From sequence record OQ990040: DNA of 64,000 nucleotides, one strand, 5' to 3'. Under the pieces are notes generated by a model that ran no database searches, was not told where the DNA came from, and worked only from the letters and a program-made list of their open reading frames with translations. The stretch comes from Escherichia phage SUT_E520. Made by a program: the position numbers and the translations under genes. Shown here one piece after another: positions 1,950 through 47,869 of this stretch; within the stretch, counting starts at the first letter, position 1, and every line of letters begins with the position of its first letter.

Positions 1950-2165
1950 TCACTTGCCCAGCAGTTTAAGGATATTTTCCATAATAGTTTGGGCAGATTT
2001 TTCACTCTTGTTGGTTTCAGCCAACTTTAAAGCGAGTTCTTCCTGCTGTTTCTGAATATCAGCTGCGATTTTTTGATCAGCCTCAATACGAGCTTGAAGC
2101 TCATCAGTGATAGTGGTAAAGGAAGCAACGATTTCAGTAACAGAACGTGGTTTCTTAGAGAACAT
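1950..2165 (-). CDS. hypothetical protein (71 aa, coiled-coil-like)
   Basis: ORF track; GC-rich hairpin immediately downstream of its stop. Confidence 0.4.
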   Translation of the reverse strand: MFSKKPRSVTEIVASFTTITDELQARIEADQKIAADIQKQQEELALKLAETNKSEKSAQTIMENILKLLGK

Positions 2166-2229: not shown

Positions 2230-2745
2230 TTACTTCGCTTTACGCTTGCGAGCTGGTTTAGCAGATTTACGAGCAGAATCACCAGTGAACTTAATGCCTA
2301 CACCGTAACACAGAGCGCGAACATTATCTTTACTATACTCTACGCCAAAGATATTTGGCTTAACAGAACCAAACTGTCCACGAGTATCGCGCAATACATC
2401 TGCTGTTGGTTTACGCTTCTGGTTAACTGCCTTCTCGTAGTCTTTCATAGACATACCATTACGAGAGAACAATTCAGCCCCAGCGTTGAAACTCAAAGAT
2501 ACTGGGACAGATTTGTGGCCGTAATTTTCTACATACATAACCATTTTGTAGGATTTACGGGTGGCATTTTTAGCTTTAGGCTTCTTACGAATCGGAGCCG
2601 GATTATTCAATGCTTGCGCAGCCTGAGCATCGGTAGGATGCTTACGCAGGTGACGTTCCAGACGAGCTTTGCGATTAGCCTCGGTCTGCGGGAAAGTTTT
2701 AACTGCCGGGGCTGCTTGAGTTTTTGCGTTTTTCTGCTTAGCCAT
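2230..2745 (-). CDS. hypothetical highly basic protein (171 aa), possible nucleic-acid binding
   Basis: Lys/Arg-rich N- and C-termini (KRKAK tail); RBS upstream. Confidence 0.5.
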   Translation of the reverse strand: MAKQKNAKTQAAPAVKTFPQTEANRKARLERHLRKHPTDAQAAQALNNPAPIRKKPKAKNATRKSYKMVMYVENYGHKSVPVSLSFNAGAELFSRNGMSMKDYEKAVNQKRKPTADVLRDTRGQFGSVKPNIFGVEYSKDNVRALCYGVGIKFTGDSARKSAKPARKRKAK

Positions 2746-2820
2746 TATTTGTTTTCCTTTTTGTTTATCAATTTATGAAGTATATTATACGAGAATTTGA
2801 AGCGTTTAGCAAATGAATTT

Positions 2821-3270
2821 TTAATTTATTAACTGTAAGCTTCTTTTAATTTCAGACCTTACTTGCATCAAAAGGACTCCTAAAGTATTATCCCCGATGC
2901 CTCGGCAAACACCCCAATATGTATCTCCCCAGGTATTTCCTTCGATCAAAGTTGCATTTTCTGTTGCTAACAGTTTATCTCTTAAATCAGGAATTGCAAA
3001 CTTTAATCGTAAAAGCTCTAGCATTACATCATCTTTTACTTTATCCCAGTCAGAGCGTAGGGTTAATTTACGTCCTCTACGTTTAGCAACTCCTGCATTT
3101 AGGGAGCGGAGTACATGAGCTACATCATCTTTTTGGTCGGATTTCATAGCCTGAAAAGCATGTTCTACAGTATCAGCATGCCATATCTCATTTAGATATT
3201 CGAAAGTAATTGGTGATAAATAAAAGTTAGATAAGAAACTATAAGTACCTTTAAATTCAGTAATCTTCAT
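2821..3270 (-). CDS. NADAR (YbiA-like, DUF1768) domain protein
   Basis: Aligns by eye to E. coli YbiA: FLSNFY...HAFQAMK and LLRLKF...LLAT...GNTWGDTYWGV...G.N.LG.LLM.VR. Confidence 0.7.
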   Translation of the reverse strand: MKITEFKGTYSFLSNFYLSPITFEYLNEIWHADTVEHAFQAMKSDQKDDVAHVLRSLNAGVAKRRGRKLTLRSDWDKVKDDVMLELLRLKFAIPDLRDKLLATENATLIEGNTWGDTYWGVCRGIGDNTLGVLLMQVRSEIKRSLQLIN

Positions 3271-3551
3271 TTTTTACGCCCCGCATCTTTAGCCTCCTCG
3301 GCTGTATAGATATACTGATAAGCCCCTTTGGAGTAGGCTGGAGCAGTACACATTTTCTTACGCTCAATCTCTTCTTGAGCTTTTCTTTCGCGTTCCGCTA
3401 ATTCTTCGTCCAAATAAACTAAACGTTGTTCTGGAGGAGGTGGAAGACGTGTTTCTGGCTCGCCAATATTAGCCTTTCTTATTTGACGAGGTGATTGTGC
3501 ACGTTTTCTCAATGGTTTAAATCCTAATGAATTTGAGTTATAGATCCGCAT
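3267..3551 (-). CDS. hypothetical protein (94 aa)
   Basis: ORF track; start/stop overlap with neighbours. Confidence 0.4.
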   Translation of the reverse strand: MRIYNSNSLGFKPLRKRAQSPRQIRKANIGEPETRLPPPPEQRLVYLDEELAERERKAQEEIERKKMCTAPAYSKGAYQYIYTAEEAKDAGRKK

Positions 3552-3628
3552 AAAGCCCTCCTCACTTTCAATACGAATATTATACTAAATTATAGGGCTT
3601 TAAGCAAGAGAATTTTTTAATTTATTTA

Positions 3629-4117
3629 TCACATCTCAGCCATTTCAGCTTCAGTAATAACTGTATTACATAAGGCGTCTACAGCCTCATTACCACTAAT
3701 ACCAGAATGTCCTTTAACCTTAATAAAGGTAGGGTTAGTATTATGAAAGTTGATATACTGCTGTGTTAATTTAAATGCTTCCTGCCAAAGTTCTAGATTA
3801 AGAGGAACTTCACCATCTGCTTTCTTCCAGCCTTTCCTTTGCCAAGAAAACATCCAACTTTCCATGCCATTTTTGCAATAAGCAGAGTCAGTATAGATAG
3901 CAATTGGTCTATTATCTTTTTTAACAGACCAACGTAGGGCTTCTACGATAGCTGTGAGTTCCATCTCATTATTTGTAGTTTTAGGATTATAACCAGATTT
4001 AGAACCTAAACGATCGTCGTTATCATCATAGACAATAAAACCCCAAGCACCTGGACCTGGATTAGACTTACAAGCACCATCTGTGTAAATGTGGAAAACC
4101 GACATTATACCTCCCAA
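3629..4117 (-). CDS. rnhA: ribonuclease H (RNase HI)
   Basis: IYTDGAC..NPGPGAWG N-terminal motif and ...GHSG..GNE..D C-terminal motif typical of RNase HI. Confidence 0.85.
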   Translation of the reverse strand: MGGIMSVFHIYTDGACKSNPGPGAWGFIVYDDNDDRLGSKSGYNPKTTNNEMELTAIVEALRWSVKKDNRPIAIYTDSAYCKNGMESWMFSWQRKGWKKADGEVPLNLELWQEAFKLTQQYINFHNTNPTFIKVKGHSGISGNEAVDALCNTVITEAEMAEM

Positions 4118-4386
4118 CTAATTTTAAGACCCATGTCTACAAAGGCGGCTTCTCGGTAGTATTGAGAGAGATGATACCCCTTATCCGATAAGGTTTTTAG
4201 TACCGATTTAGCGGCTCCTGGCATTTCTCTAGGATTATATAGCCACCTAGCGTAAGGATTATCTCGAATAATTACTTCTGTATTTCCAGACTTAGCAGCT
4301 TCTACAATCTTTTCTTCTATAAACTTTAGAAAAGCGGGTACTTCTGTTAATCCTGCAAGTTCTTGGGCTTCTTTGGCTGAAATCAT
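4105..4386 (-). CDS. hypothetical protein (93 aa)
   Basis: ORF track; overlapping start/stop with neighbours. Confidence 0.4.
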   Translation of the reverse strand: MISAKEAQELAGLTEVPAFLKFIEEKIVEAAKSGNTEVIIRDNPYARWLYNPREMPGAAKSVLKTLSDKGYHLSQYYREAAFVDMGLKISWEV

Positions 4387-4586
4387 GGCTTTTCACCTTC
4401 TGCTACACTTCTGGTTTTTGGTGGGATGGGAGGGTTAGGTTTTATAGCCGCTAATTCCCTATCTAAGAATTCCTCTATTGCTCTATCTACAAAGTAGTCA
4501 TAGGGTAAATGATAATGTTCTGATAGAGTAAGAAGTTTGTGCTCTTGGCTTTCTGTTAAATAAACTTTCTTTCTAAAGAGTCCCAT
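4383..4586 (-). CDS. hypothetical protein (67 aa)
   Basis: ORF track. Confidence 0.35.
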   Translation of the reverse strand: MGLFRKKVYLTESQEHKLLTLSEHYHLPYDYFVDRAIEEFLDRELAAIKPNPPIPPKTRSVAEGEKP

Positions 4587-7276: not shown

Positions 7277-7759
7277 TTATAAACTATCAAGCTCCAATAG
7301 TTTAGCATCGCGCCATTCTATAGCATCCTCTAATTCTTTGAATGTTTTAGTATGTTTTACACCTTTTCTAGCAATCTGGACTTGGTAAGATCCGCTTGCT
7401 TTTTGGTGTATATTCTTAATACCTAACTTATTGTCTTTGTGCGCTCCGACATTCTTTCCATTGTTAAATCTATCAGATGCTAATAAATTAATTGCTCTAT
7501 TATCATGACGTATTCTGTTGTCATGGTCTACTTCTTTTGGAATGTATCCATGAGTGATATAGAATGCTAGGATATGTGCATAGTATTTTTTACCCCTTAC
7601 TTGCATTACTATATACCCTGAGCATTTTTCTAGAGAACCTGCTTCTTTGCCAGCAAACTTAGTATTAAAGGATTTATCTTCTCTAGGTTTGTGGGTAAAG
7701 ATTCCAGTTTCTGGATTATAGTCAAATAACCCAGCTATTTCTTTATATTTTTCTTCCAT
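7277..7759 (-). CDS. free-standing HNH homing endonuclease (HNH_3 with AP2-like C-terminal DNA-binding region)
   Basis: GY...AH.....THGYIP....VDHDNRIRHDNRAINL motif; inserted between nrdA and nrdB. Confidence 0.75.
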   Translation of the reverse strand: MEEKYKEIAGLFDYNPETGIFTHKPREDKSFNTKFAGKEAGSLEKCSGYIVMQVRGKKYYAHILAFYITHGYIPKEVDHDNRIRHDNRAINLLASDRFNNGKNVGAHKDNKLGIKNIHQKASGSYQVQIARKGVKHTKTFKELEDAIEWRDAKLLELDSL

Positions 7760-14172: not shown

Positions 14173-14362
14173 GGGTTTAAACGCCGCTTTGGAAAACGCA
14201 TTAATGCAGCACTGGGAAACTGGCTATAAGGATGGTGTTGAATCCTGCGCTACTATGCTAGAAGTTATTGCTAATACCTTAATGGAGAAAGGCAATAAAG
14301 AATTAGCTGAGCTATTAGACAGTATTGGGCAAAACTTCAGAGAACAGGTGAAAAATGCGTAG
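14141..14362 (+). CDS. hypothetical protein (73 aa)
   Basis: ORF track; overlapping operon spacing. Confidence 0.35.
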   Translation: MAFSKPMLPDKGLNAALENALMQHWETGYKDGVESCATMLEVIANTLMEKGNKELAELLDSIGQNFREQVKNA

Positions 14363-15170
14363 ATTAATTGTTATTAGCGGTGCAGGTTTGAGTGTTGAAA
14401 GTGGTGTACGAGCTTTTCGTACTGATACTGCTAGTGGTAAAGCATTGTGGGATGATTATGATCTAGAAGAAGTATGTAATATTCATGCCTTTCGTGGTAA
14501 TTTTTATCATAAAACCCATATGTTTTACAACAAGCGTCGTGAAGAGCTAAAAACTGTTGAACCCAATCTTGCGCATTTGCGTATCGGTGAATGGTATAAA
14601 CAATATCCAGGTCAAGTAGTAAACTTGACTACCAACGTTGATGACCTTATTGAGCGTTCTGGCGTTCCACATAATGACATTCTACACATTCATGGATATT
14701 TAAAAGAGGTTGTTGTAGCTGATAGCTACAATAGTAGCAATAAACGGATTATTGATGTAGGATACAATTCTATTGATCCAGATGATTATAAATGGGTTAA
14801 ACCTAATGTAATCTTCTTTGGAGAGCATGCTCCAGCATATGCGGAGATGTACAATGTTTTTGATGGTATTACCAGTCAAGATATGATCATTGTGGTTGGT
14901 TGCTCTAACCAAGTAATTAACTTCTACTGGGAATTATTTCCTGTTCTTAATTTGACTGCTGCCAAGCTAATGGTTGTTAACTACTATGATAGTGCCCTAG
15001 CGGCGGAACCGAGCTATCAAGGTATGACTCGTAGTGAGATGTACCAGCTGGAAGAACGCGGTATCCCTTACTGGGGTAAAGGTGCGGTAGATGCTTTCAG
15101 TGATCCTGATTTTATTGCTCGTGTAGAAGCTCATTTAGGGGGTAGACCTTATGTGTCAGGAAATAAGTAA
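14355..15170 (+). CDS. Sir2-like (sirtuin-fold) NAD-binding protein lacking the zinc ribbon
   Basis: GAGLSVESGVRAFR, NLAH...TTNVDDLIERSG, HIHGYL, PNVIFFGE and VVGCS align by eye to CobB/sirtuin motifs; no CxxC...CxxC zinc-binding cysteines. Confidence 0.7.
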   Translation: MRRLIVISGAGLSVESGVRAFRTDTASGKALWDDYDLEEVCNIHAFRGNFYHKTHMFYNKRREELKTVEPNLAHLRIGEWYKQYPGQVVNLTTNVDDLIERSGVPHNDILHIHGYLKEVVVADSYNSSNKRIIDVGYNSIDPDDYKWVKPNVIFFGEHAPAYAEMYNVFDGITSQDMIIVVGCSNQVINFYWELFPVLNLTAAKLMVVNYYDSALAAEPSYQGMTRSEMYQLEERGIPYWGKGAVDAFSDPDFIARVEAHLGGRPYVSGNK

Positions 15171-15663
15171 TACTCCAATTATTTTTCTAGACATTGATGG
15201 GGTGCTCAATTCGAGCATCTCCCACTATCATGCACCTGATGATGAAAAGATTTTCTTTGGAAGTGATTGGGTTTTCAAACCGCTTCTCAAGGCTTTTCAG
15301 GACTTTATTCGTCCTTCTCCAATAATGATTGTTGGAGTATCATCTTGGTTCTCTGTCAGAAATGAGATGGAGAACGTTCAGATTATGACCGGATTAGGCC
15401 TTATCGATCGTTTTCTTGGTACAACGGATTTTACTGGTGGTGGATTATCTAGGGGTAATTCTGTTCTTCGCTTCGTTGAAAAGCATAAGCTCAAACATTG
15501 GTGTGTGCTTGATGATGCGGGTGCTATGATGTATCAGTATCCAACGGTTATAGTCAACGGTAGGACTGGTATAAATCTTCAAGATTTAAAAGCTGTTAGC
15601 TATATGCTAGAATTTAGCCCAGATCTTGAAATGTGTAAATCCTTACAACAATTTAAGGTGTAA
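15151..15663 (+). CDS. HAD-superfamily phosphatase-like protein
   Basis: N-terminal FLDIDGVL (HAD motif I, DxDG) and a later VLDDAG acidic motif. Confidence 0.5.
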   Translation: MCQEISNTPIIFLDIDGVLNSSISHYHAPDDEKIFFGSDWVFKPLLKAFQDFIRPSPIMIVGVSSWFSVRNEMENVQIMTGLGLIDRFLGTTDFTGGGLSRGNSVLRFVEKHKLKHWCVLDDAGAMMYQYPTVIVNGRTGINLQDLKAVSYMLEFSPDLEMCKSLQQFKV

Positions 15664-45035: not shown

Positions 45036-47869
45036 TCCACAGACTGTTCTCCATCATCTCCTTCTGCTCTAATACGAAAATATAGTTTTCTATTTATTCC
45101 TAGAGCATCACTGTTATGAAGAGCAAAATCTGCCTTATTATACATTAATAAATAGTCATAAGTATACTGATTTTCAATACGTACACTTCTTAGCATTCTA
45201 TTCTGGGAGTCATAGATTTCCAGAGTATAGAATATACTTTCTATTATATCTTCTTCTGGTATCCTATCCCAAGCTAGTTTTACATCTGGGCCTACAAATT
45301 CAGTTACATCCCCAGAAGCCGTATTAGTTACCCTAAAATTAGATACTACACTTAGGTTTTTAGCAGAGTTAAGTTCTATAGATAAGGTTACTGGAGAACT
45401 TCTTCTACCATTTATATCCACAGCCCTTATTTCAAATATCGCTAAGCCTGCAGGCTCTCCAATTATCTCTTGGATCATGCGTTCATTGGGATTTGTTTCT
45501 AGTTGCTGCACAATATAAGGCTCAGCATGCCCGGAATGCACGATAGAGTAATAAACTACGTTATTAGTTAAGCTTGGAAGCCAAGATAACTCACCATTTT
45601 TTCCTATAGAACCAACTAAACCACCGGGTGTAGGAGTATATTTAAAATCTCTAGGAGGAAGAACGTTGTTACTAATATCTGGTATATCATTACCACTATT
45701 ATCTACTTGATCAGAGTTGATAAATACATCTTCCCCATACTCCTGTAGAGTAACATTTATCTTTCCTTCTCTAGAGTTTTCGACTTCATCTACTAAAAAG
45801 TACTTCTTATCCCATCCGTAACGGTCGTATGTAAATGCAATAGCATCGTTAGGCTCAATACCAATGAATTGATATGGTAAAGAAAATGAGAGGGTTCTAG
45901 AATACCTAGATTTCTTAAGTTCTCTGTCTGCAAAACTTCTAGCAGTATAGTAGTTAGTTATATTTGCAAAAGATAATTGTAATTTTTTATCTAAATTTTT
46001 ATCCTGCTCTTTATATTTAGAGTTATAAAAGGTAATAGAGTTAGTTTTCCAGCTAAGAGCTGGGTCTACTATGGATGCTTGAACTGAGTTGAATTTATTT
46101 CTACCAGTAGTATCTGATAGCTCTAAATCACCATAAGTATCCAGAAAATTAATCTCTAATGGAGTATTAGAATATTTTTCTACAGTAATCCTATATTGAC
46201 CAGATAAGTTGTTAATAGCCCCACCGTAGGATTCTAGTAAACCTTGCACATTTTTAAATACTGATTCAGATGTATCTAGAATAGTATTCATTTGTACTAT
46301 TTGTCTATTTTCTGCTAATGGATCAGTCCACCCAACATATCTCCAGTATGGCTGCCAGGATACTTGGTAAGATTCATCTATAATATCTAAGATAGCAGCT
46401 TCTTGTACCAATTGTTGTAGGGGGAACTGATCAATAGCAATGTTTGCACCATACCTATCTGAAGTTAAGTAGTCAAGTGTTTGCCAAATACCATTTAAAC
46501 TAGTACTATTAGCAGTTACTCTACCATCAGGATGATAGATTTTTATCTTCTTACCCTGAATCTCAGCACTAACTTCTGGAATCTCAGTTCTATTTTCATT
46601 AATAGTAAAGCGTACTACCGCGTATGCAGTATCTAATAATTTATATCTAGTATCCCAGTACTCAGGCCCATTACCGTTCATATTTTGGAGATAGAACCCA
46701 CGTTCCTTCGCTATATTTACTAATACTTCAGAAGCCGTTTGATCAGCTTTTCCATGATAAGTCCAAATCCTTATATCACCATTACCATCATTATATTTAT
46801 ATTCCTGACCGTGCACAGAAGGACTACTAGAAGATATTCCTGATGCTATTCTTTGCATGGTGTCTCCTGCTACTTTTTTAACACCGAAACAGGTTCTAGC
46901 AGAGCTATCATTAGAGTCCATACAAATCATAGGGTTATCCCCAAAGGAAAAGTCAAGAAAACCGTCTATCTCTCCTTCAGCAAAAGCGTATACTACGTAA
47001 ACTATATTAGGATTGTGTAATTCCGTATCCGCAAAAATAGGTATTCCCGGTATTTTCTGTACACCATAAACTACTGGTATATACTTAGCAGCAAGGTTAA
47101 AATCTATATCTACTTCTTTAGTAACAGTCTCATAATACTTTTTAAGACTATAACTTCTAGATAGTCCAAATAGCTTTTTCTTAGACTTTAGCTTGTATCT
47201 TTCTTCCTGTACCTGATACTTTGCTAGAATAGAGATACTTTTATTGGCATGAAAGAACCCATAATCTTCCTGGTATTCAAGTCTTTTAGCCCCGTTAGAT
47301 GGAACTAATTGTCCTGCTACAACCTCAAGCCCTCTATGAGAAGCATCATCAGTAAACCTACCGTTAACCCTATCAAAATCATAGAATTGGTTAGAACAAT
47401 TCCAAGTAATTGTAGAGGTTCCAACCCCAGAAGTACTAATGTTGTCCTTAATACCTCCACCAGTAATTCTCCCTCTAAAGTATAATAAAGGGCCATTTGT
47501 GTCTGGGTCTACAGGTAAAATAGAACCATCCTCTGTAATAATTGCTTGGTGGATTGATACTAGTCTATCTAAAAAGGATACACCATTCTGCACTAATTTC
47601 AGTACTTCATCCTGTGCTGTACCTGTAATAGTAAAAGATAGGCTGCCAATAGATAAATCTCTATTTTGTTTATGTGTGCTAATAGACTTAACTTTACCGG
47701 CCTGGTACAAAATACCATTATATAGTACATCTCTAAAATAGTCAGTTAAGTAAATAAAAGCAGTACTAGTACCTGTAGAGCCGGGTAATTCTAGAGAAAT
47801 TAGACTAGCAGTTTTTATTCTGCTATTATTTTTTAAGTAGTTTCTAGCACTATCTAATATTTTTTTCAT
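45020..47869 (-). CDS. baseplate hub / tail-associated protein (pb3-like, 949 aa)
   Basis: Length identical to T5 pb3 as I recall it; directly downstream of Dit. Confidence 0.75.
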   Translation of the reverse strand: MKKILDSARNYLKNNSRIKTASLISLELPGSTGTSTAFIYLTDYFRDVLYNGILYQAGKVKSISTHKQNRDLSIGSLSFTITGTAQDEVLKLVQNGVSFLDRLVSIHQAIITEDGSILPVDPDTNGPLLYFRGRITGGGIKDNISTSGVGTSTITWNCSNQFYDFDRVNGRFTDDASHRGLEVVAGQLVPSNGAKRLEYQEDYGFFHANKSISILAKYQVQEERYKLKSKKKLFGLSRSYSLKKYYETVTKEVDIDFNLAAKYIPVVYGVQKIPGIPIFADTELHNPNIVYVVYAFAEGEIDGFLDFSFGDNPMICMDSNDSSARTCFGVKKVAGDTMQRIASGISSSSPSVHGQEYKYNDGNGDIRIWTYHGKADQTASEVLVNIAKERGFYLQNMNGNGPEYWDTRYKLLDTAYAVVRFTINENRTEIPEVSAEIQGKKIKIYHPDGRVTANSTSLNGIWQTLDYLTSDRYGANIAIDQFPLQQLVQEAAILDIIDESYQVSWQPYWRYVGWTDPLAENRQIVQMNTILDTSESVFKNVQGLLESYGGAINNLSGQYRITVEKYSNTPLEINFLDTYGDLELSDTTGRNKFNSVQASIVDPALSWKTNSITFYNSKYKEQDKNLDKKLQLSFANITNYYTARSFADRELKKSRYSRTLSFSLPYQFIGIEPNDAIAFTYDRYGWDKKYFLVDEVENSREGKINVTLQEYGEDVFINSDQVDNSGNDIPDISNNVLPPRDFKYTPTPGGLVGSIGKNGELSWLPSLTNNVVYYSIVHSGHAEPYIVQQLETNPNERMIQEIIGEPAGLAIFEIRAVDINGRRSSPVTLSIELNSAKNLSVVSNFRVTNTASGDVTEFVGPDVKLAWDRIPEEDIIESIFYTLEIYDSQNRMLRSVRIENQYTYDYLLMYNKADFALHNSDALGINRKLYFRIRAEGDDGEQSVEWASI

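Follow-up and report, generated by a model that had tools for sequence, protein, structure and literature searches.

Whether a small gene in the early region of Escherichia phage SUT_E520 (sequence record OQ990040) encodes an enzyme that frees phage DNA from a modification imposed by the host is the question addressed here. A preliminary description, made from the DNA alone, had noted that the predicted 149-amino-acid protein resembles Escherichia coli YbiA along its whole length, had assigned it to the NADAR-domain proteins and had proposed it as a candidate counter-defence or DNA-repair factor that removes ADP-ribose from guanine bases modified by DarT-type toxins. A profile search against Pfam PF08719 and a comparison of a predicted structure with characterized NADAR enzymes had been suggested as checks. 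The window analyzed here is a stretch of 64,000 nucleotides of OQ990040, from a Tequintavirus; over its first 25 kb it shows 100% identity with Escherichia phage SUT_E1520 (OQ885479.1) and 96-98% identity with many T5-like phages.

Gene and family assignment

The gene, for which the name adfN is used below, is an open reading frame (ORF) of 149 codons with an ATG start and a TAA stop on the minus strand (Table 1), a strand that the preliminary description had left unstated. The encoded protein matches the NADAR family (PF08719, DUF1768) at residues 9-142 with 78.8 bits (E=7.2e-22) against a Pfam gathering cutoff of 35.1 bits, covers positions 9-163 of the 163 positions of the profile and also matches phrog_1017 (E=1.2e-44). 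With E. coli K-12 YbiA (b0798), BLASTP aligns residues 10-141 of the 149 with 54 identities in 136 positions (40%; pairwise E=6e-21), and a sequence search of the PDB retrieves YbiA (2b3w; E=3e-15) and the P. nicotianae NADAR (8bau; E=7e-7), hereafter PnNADAR. The motifs that had been aligned by eye (SNF, EH.FQA.K, KF, LLAT, L.E, D.YWG and G.N.LG.LLM..R) all fall within the BLASTP alignment to YbiA. Judged by these comparisons, the NADAR family match is far beyond chance, and the claim of a NADAR/YbiA-like domain stands, with the profile search that had been suggested giving a score well over the threshold.

Predicted structure and active site

Homologues of the 149-aa protein were collected from a large protein collection (1038 at E<=1e-5, all with PF08719), and 99 of them were aligned. 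The AF2 model built with this alignment has a pLDDT of 97.2 and a pTM of 0.91 and consists of helices at residues 35-41, 47-54, 59-66, 75-90, 94-101 and 129-148, a hairpin of strands 21-25 and 28-32 and a second small sheet at approximately residues 107-125. This is the NADAR fold, an alpha-helical core with two small flanking beta-hairpins, and Foldseek against the PDB returned two significant matches only, YbiA (2b3w; TM 0.82, rmsd 2.6) and PnNADAR with bound ADP-ribose (8bau; TM 0.78).

Residues of the predicted protein were mapped by profile alignment to 8bau, with the roles reported by Schuller et al. (2023; PMC11543638), the numbering of the chain being that of the paper plus 2. E36, K43, K63, R67 and D74 correspond to E43, K50, K75, R79 and D86 of PnNADAR, respectively, and W75, K79, D116 and W119 to W89, R93, D130 and W133; E110, located in LIEGNTWGDTYWG, aligns with E125. 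The PnNADAR counterparts are ADP-ribose ligands or catalytic residues by structure and mutagenesis (PMC11543638). E36, K43, E110, D116 and W119 are invariant in the 99 aligned homologues, and K63, G66, R72 and W75 are nearly so. The catalytic Glu and Lys and the acidic residue at the distal ribose, which are E43, K50 and E125 in PnNADAR and E88, K95 and D171 in the protein of E. coli C7, are thus all present as E36, K43 and E110. Mutation of E88, K95 and D171 in the E. coli C7 protein abolishes the rescue from DarT1 toxicity, and its K115, the equivalent of K63, is required in vivo (PMC11543638). The sole ADP-ribose ligand that is replaced is the adenine-stacking Y84 of PnNADAR, whose place is taken by R72; since all other ligands are conserved, the pocket is intact, an outcome in favor of the preliminary description, and we infer the catalytic role of each individual residue.

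That the protein is a decayed remnant, or that it binds ADP-ribose in a purely structural way without catalysis, is hardly credible. Nothing specific points to such a reading, which is prompted by the mention in the literature of a non-enzymatic phage NADAR, and against it stand the full-length ORF, the intact E36, K43 and E110 that are invariant in the 99 homologues, the conservation of the gene at 95-100% nucleotide identity in approximately 95 phage genomes and the statement that AdfN proteins require enzymatic activity, for which the mutant evidence is from AdfN-T4 (PMC11825919, in the part of the text available).

Near-identity to AdfN-Bas32

The gene is already known, and a description of it, with its family assignment, activity and biological role, is in print for a protein one residue away from the predicted one. 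Johannesman et al. (Nat Commun, 2025; PMC11825919) described the anti-DarT factor NADAR of the Markadamsvirinae phages Bas32 and Bas33 and named it AdfN-Bas32. The predicted protein is of equal length to and identical at 148 of 149 positions with both bas32_0066 of phage IrisVonRoten (Bas32) and bas33_0070 of phage HildyBeyeler (Bas33). Genes in the window, Bas32 and Bas33 share the order thy, small ORFs, rnh, T5.090-like ORF, NADAR gene and DUF7022 gene. The gene in the window and that for AdfN-Bas32 are the same gene by sequence, by length, by their slot flanked by the T5.090-like ORF on one side and the DUF7022 gene on the other and by their occurrence in Tequintavirus, although AdfN-Bas32 comes from phages of the BASEL collection, to which the phage of the window does not belong.

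Expression of AdfN-Bas32 neutralizes the toxicity of DarT1, a guanine-specific DNA ADP-ribosyltransferase, in uninfected E. coli (PMC11825919). T5 is reported to be sensitive to DarTG1, and on hosts with DarTG1 the phages RB69, T5 and Bas25 regain full titer with ectopic AdfN-Bas32, whereas the plaquing of T5 on DarTG2, which modifies thymidine, is unchanged. Unlike AdfN-T4, AdfN-Bas32 requires no other phage factor (PMC11825919). In the text consulted, the published tests of AdfN-Bas32 use ectopic expression and include no deletion of its gene in a native T5-like phage, and among later publications a literature search on AdfN in phages of the T5 type turned up only a transposon study of T4. 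Given the identity at 148 of 149 residues with the tested AdfN-Bas32, the function proposed in the preliminary description, reversal of DarT-type guanine ADP-ribosylation as counter-defence, may be taken as correct and as already tested on a 99%-identical orthologue. It is the literature on this orthologue, not on the allele in the window, that supports a predicted anti-DarT1 and anti-DarTG1 activity of the latter, and the gene presumably contributes in the same sense during the natural infection by its native T5-like phage.

The alleles differ at two positions, 9 and 104, both of which are variable across the family: T9/E104 in the window, A9/E104 in Bas32 and T9/K104 in Bas33. The window allele therefore combines one state found in Bas33 (T9) with one found in Bas32 (E104). 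The NADARs of Bas32 and Bas33 are called identical by Johannesman et al. (PMC11825919), yet their GenBank records (L087:601-1050 and L001:3001-3450) differ at these two residues.

Position among the NADAR subfamilies

De Souza and Aravind distinguished NADAR classes by the residue at the position of PnNADAR E125, with Glu in the YbiA family, Asp in the BC4488/DarG1 group and His in the NADARs of T4-like phages (summarized in PMC11543638). By its E110 the predicted protein has the Glu of the YbiA family. It also shares with E. coli YbiA a minimal core without N-terminal extension (the YbiA-like core begins at residue 2), the E-x6-K motif and the D-x-YWG motif, in addition to the 40% sequence identity and the TM score of 0.82. 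Could it then be a housekeeping-type YbiA N-glycosidase (COG3236/TIGR02464) that destroys reactive riboflavin intermediates as part of a phage metabolism module? YbiA is its best match in both sequence and solved structure, E110 is the residue that defines the YbiA family, the gene lies near thy, frd and nrdAB, and many public records label it as a riboflavin biosynthesis protein or GTP cyclohydrolase II. However, the score against TIGR02464, the NCBIfam YbiA equivalog for riboflavin N-glycosidase, is 66.6 bits and remains below the cutoff of 73.7, while genuine E. coli YbiA scores 169.5 and close relatives of the predicted protein score 68-87, on both sides of the cutoff. E. coli YbiA is encoded on the chromosome in a LexA-regulated setting and fails to rescue cells from DarT1, although it removes guanine-linked ADP-ribose (G-ADPr) in vitro, whereas the Bas32-type protein, 99% identical to that of the window, does rescue them. 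Neither T5 nor the majority of T5-like genomes with a complete nucleotide-metabolism block contain the gene, a distribution that fits accessory counter-defence and not metabolism, and the GTP cyclohydrolase II labels are a carry-over from homologues fused to RibA. We therefore consider a housekeeping function very unlikely. The case of YbiA also means that sequence alone is no guarantee of activity in vivo, since a protein 40% identical to the predicted one is active in vitro without rescuing cells.

PnNADAR has the same fold, and its ADP-ribose ligands are conserved except Y84, but it is a eukaryotic protein of 27% identity with additional sequence at the N-terminus and an insertion within the chain next to the active site. 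With DarG1 of the BC4488 family (E. coli C7, G. lovleyi) the predicted protein would share its chemistry, its substrate (guanine-N2-ADP-ribose in DNA modified by DarT1) and a mode of detoxification that is enzymatic and does not involve binding of the toxin. It differs from DarG1, for which the comparison relies on published descriptions, in lacking a basic N-terminal beta-beta-alpha extension, in having Glu in place of Asp (D171) and in having no adjacent darT1; the basic extension of DarG1-type NADARs, absent from the 149-aa protein, is thought to bind ssDNA. The DarG1 structure from G. lovleyi was not retrieved by the Foldseek or HMM searches, and no ART domain or DarT1 gene was detected by Pfam and PADLOC scans among the neighbors of adfN (T5.090-like, DUF7022, RNase H). 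The only PADLOC match was a weak and uninformative one to the candidate family PDC-M42C (28 bits), and with the profile of the DS-32 NADAR anti-phage protein (NF053876) the score stayed at 44.8 bits, far below its cutoff of 240.

AdfN-T4 (gp30.3) is likewise an orphan phage NADAR that counters DarTG1, and its catalytic E36 and K43 have the same residue numbers as those of the predicted protein. The T4 clade has His instead of the Glu retained as E110, however, and there is no detectable pairwise similarity between the two proteins (no significant BLASTP alignment with T4 gp30.3; E=1.3). Moreover, AdfN-T4 needs the T-even context for full activity and, in contrast to AdfN-Bas32, does not neutralize DarT1 in uninfected cells (PMC11825919). 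AdfN-T4 and the Bas32-type proteins appear to have been acquired independently. The 149-aa protein is DarG1-like in action yet outside the DarG1 family, and YbiA-like in architecture yet no housekeeping YbiA. In the analysis of Johannesman et al., AdfN-Bas32 likewise belongs to neither the DarG1 nor the YbiA cluster and is described as nearest to two archaeal NADARs (PMC11825919).

Genome context and accessory cassette

On the minus strand of the window the genes follow each other in the order NrdA, HNH endonuclease, NrdB, dihydrofolate reductase (DHFR), ThyA, two small ORFs, RNase H, the T5.090-like ORF, the NADAR gene, the DUF7022 gene (T5.089-like), two small ORFs and the exonuclease (T5.087-like). 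This stretch corresponds to the early region of Tequintavirus in the annotation of T5. The neighbors on the same strand, from RNase H and thymidylate synthase to DHFR, NrdB and NrdA, agree with the early nucleotide-metabolism setting given in the preliminary description. The term operon used there is loose and overstates what is known of transcription, as the homologous stretch of T5 is annotated with several separate promoters.

Table 1. Features of the window around adfN and at other variable sites of the early region
Feature	Position	Strand	Basis
adfN (Bas32-type), 149 aa, predicted stand-alone NADAR-domain ADP-ribosylglycohydrolase	2821..3270	-	ORF, PF08719, near-identity to bas32_0066/bas33_0070, AF2, Foldseek
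T5.090 orthologue, 94 aa, phrog_4593, directly upstream of adfN	3267..3551	-	ORF, PHROG
Accessory cassette of ~0.48 kb (~481 bp; ~45 bp in T5): 3' end of T5.090-like ORF and whole adfN	2823..3303	-	Global alignment with T5
Probable promoter of the T5.090-like/adfN pair (TTGCTT...TATAAT, then GGAGG, ATG)	3553..3628	-	Homology to T5 promoter annotated at 46337..46411
Homologue of T5 promoter P-H207, directly after the adfN stop	2757..2829	-	TTGCTA-17-TATAAT at 2812..2784, near-identity to T5
71-aa ORF, phrog_2380, between T5.088-like and T5.089-like	1950..2165	-	Not present in T5 or Bas33
Two small overlapping ORFs, 93 and 67 aa, between rnh and thy	4105..4386, 4383..4586	-	No Pfam match
HNH_3 endonuclease ORF, 160 aa, between nrdB and nrdA	7277..7759	-	Site of hegH in T5

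The start of adfN overlaps the stop of the T5.090-like ORF by 4 nt (ATGA), and this stop/start overlap suggests that the two genes are co-transcribed and translationally coupled. Together with the homologue of a T5 promoter upstream of the T5.090-like ORF, it is most simply explained by an early transcription unit of two genes with adfN in second place. Transcription may run on into the following unit. No terminator-like site was seen between adfN and the P-H207 homologue. The latter would drive the downstream DUF7022 gene (T5.089 orthologue, 2230..2745). The promoter assignments rest on homology to annotated T5 promoters because a generic promoter scan of the region did no better than shuffled sequences (9 sites against 8.9 expected) and missed the promoter of the T5.090-like/adfN pair.

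Affine-gap global alignment of the window with T5, which was used to define the edges of the cassette, shows that collinearity stops at ~3304 and resumes at ~2822, and in T5 itself T5.089 and T5.090 are annotated as directly adjacent genes. What stands in place of the ~45 bp of T5 consists of the last ~12 codons of the T5.090-like ORF and the entire NADAR gene, whose stop codon forms the right edge. The T5.090-like ORF is identical to T5.090 at 84 of 92 positions, with all the differences in the last ~12 residues at its C-terminus. The gene is therefore an accessory one.

Distribution and relatives

The adfN gene was found at ~95-100% nucleotide identity in 95 records of Escherichia- and Salmonella-type T5-like phages, while the surrounding 2.2 kb is matched by ~441 records, and roughly one in five of these phages therefore carries it. 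A NADAR of 60% identity is encoded in the Epseptimavirus UTK0009 (Salmonella phage vB_SenS_UTK0009; L005:3489-3938) between rnh and T5.090, that is, on the side of T5.090 opposite to that in the window, and the T5.090 orthologue of UTK0009 has a T5-type C-terminus. This arrangement points to another insertion, independent of the first, within one variable neighborhood.

In a scan of species-representative genomes, 80 loci of 44-54% identity were kept. They are mostly bacterial (Bryobacterales, Planctomycetes, Pseudomonadales, Clostridia and Deinococcus), and as only one of the 80 belongs to an archaeon, the archaeal affinity reported for AdfN-Bas32 is probably a sampling effect. No ART toxin was detected by Pfam and PHROG beside three of the bacterial relatives (L047, L054 and L071), where the matches were to DUF3085, an NAD-dependent ligase and phosphohydrolase/phosphatase-like proteins.

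Cellular relatives of 47-54% identity are present in two to four copies per chromosome, for instance in OZ241991.1, a Bryobacterales metagenome-assembled genome (L008, L010, L016 and L026), OZ220680.1 (L047 and L055), OZ242340.1 (L028 and L049) and OZ241908.1 (L027, L035 and L061). The flanks of several copy pairs, among them L008/L010, L047/L055 and L028/L049, are 80-96% identical over several kb, and the NADAR genes of these pairs therefore lie within a repeated and possibly mobile element. The Azotimanducaceae copies L027, L035 and L061 have only ~0.4-0.9 kb in common around the gene.

Proposed mechanism and range of targets

Based on the near-identity to AdfN-Bas32, the intact pocket and the genome context, we propose, with considerable confidence, that the gene encodes an AdfN-type anti-DarTG1 NADAR enzyme of the Bas32 kind, which acts early and alone and restores guanine in phage DNA. 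In this model, a minimal stand-alone NADAR glycohydrolase would be produced early in infection. Host DarT1, the toxin of DarTG1, would ADP-ribosylate guanine in the phage DNA and thereby block its replication. The enzyme may then bind the ADP-ribose moiety with the diphosphate held by K43, R67, W75, K79, D116 and W119 and with the distal ribose flanked by E36 and E110, and hydrolysis of the N-glycosidic bond between ribose and guanine would restore unmodified DNA, so that the phage could replicate. Only guanine-linked ADP-ribose would serve as substrate, not the thymidine-linked form made by DarT2, and the enzyme would need no further phage factor.

Other or broader targets, which would be compatible with the anti-DarTG1 role, are also to be considered: other forms of ADP-ribosylation of nucleic acids (C-ADPr, G-ADPr in RNA or the products of other ARTs), or the free or protein-linked ADP-ribose of NAD-dependent defences, which the protein might bind or degrade. 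Removal of C-ADPr and activity on RNA are found in Glu-type members of the NADAR/YbiA family and not in those of the DarG1 and T4 types (PMC12945103), and the predicted protein is of the Glu type by its E110; Iyer et al. proposed that phage NADARs act on soluble ADPr derivatives, the literature mentions one phage NADAR that is non-enzymatic, and a phage NADAR-like inhibitor of Retron-Eco1 has been reported (Carabias et al., 2024, as cited in PMC11825919). On the other hand, AdfN-Bas32 has no effect on DarTG2, its only known substrate is DNA modified by DarT1, and no ART, macrodomain or NAD-salvage gene adjoins adfN. A broader or different target thus seems rather unlikely. More speculatively, the Glu-type minimal NADAR might be a broad eraser or binder of ADP-ribose (C-ADPr, RNA-ADPr or NAD/ADPr defences such as Retron-Eco1), and the two slots that flank T5.090 in Markadamsvirinae might be a hot-spot for independently acquired, exchangeable NADAR counter-defence alleles; we regard this combined extension as rather unlikely.

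If the anti-DarTG1 enzyme proposed above acts as AdfN-Bas32 does, the phage of the window and the ~95 related Escherichia and Salmonella phages would be expected to grow on hosts with DarTG1, on which T5 cannot. Such a prediction may help in selecting phages for therapeutic use or biocontrol. The analysis accounts for a single accessory gene of a phage related to T5 and adds no new biology to that of Johannesman et al. (2025; PMC11825919).

Neighboring loci and annotation

The slot between rnh and thy, which holds two small ORFs in the window (Table 1), contains only an annotated promoter in T5, one ORF in Bas33 and two in UTK0009, and by this differing content it is another variable slot. The HNH_3 ORF between nrdB and nrdA is probably a homing endonuclease. 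No tRNA genes were found by ARAGORN in the 64-kb window, which places the tRNA cluster of T5-like phages outside it. On the plus strand, a SIR2-family protein (PF02146, 86 bits) is encoded at 14355..15170, followed at 15151..15663 by a HAD-domain protein of the 'Swiss Army Knife' RNA-repair type (PF18143) and by two DUF7415 proteins; these genes, which are related to NAD/ADPr and RNA repair, are also present in T5 (T5.102-T5.107).

The labels of adfN in public records, 'swarming motility protein YbiA', 'GTP cyclohydrolase II', 'riboflavin biosynthesis protein', 'DUF1768 domain-containing protein' and 'hypothetical protein', could be corrected on the basis of this analysis; few records say 'NADAR', and none of those listed has the AdfN label. 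In several records the small ORF at the position equivalent to that of the phrog_2380 gene is labeled 'tail (length) tape measure protein', an implausible name in view of the size of the protein and its place in the early region.
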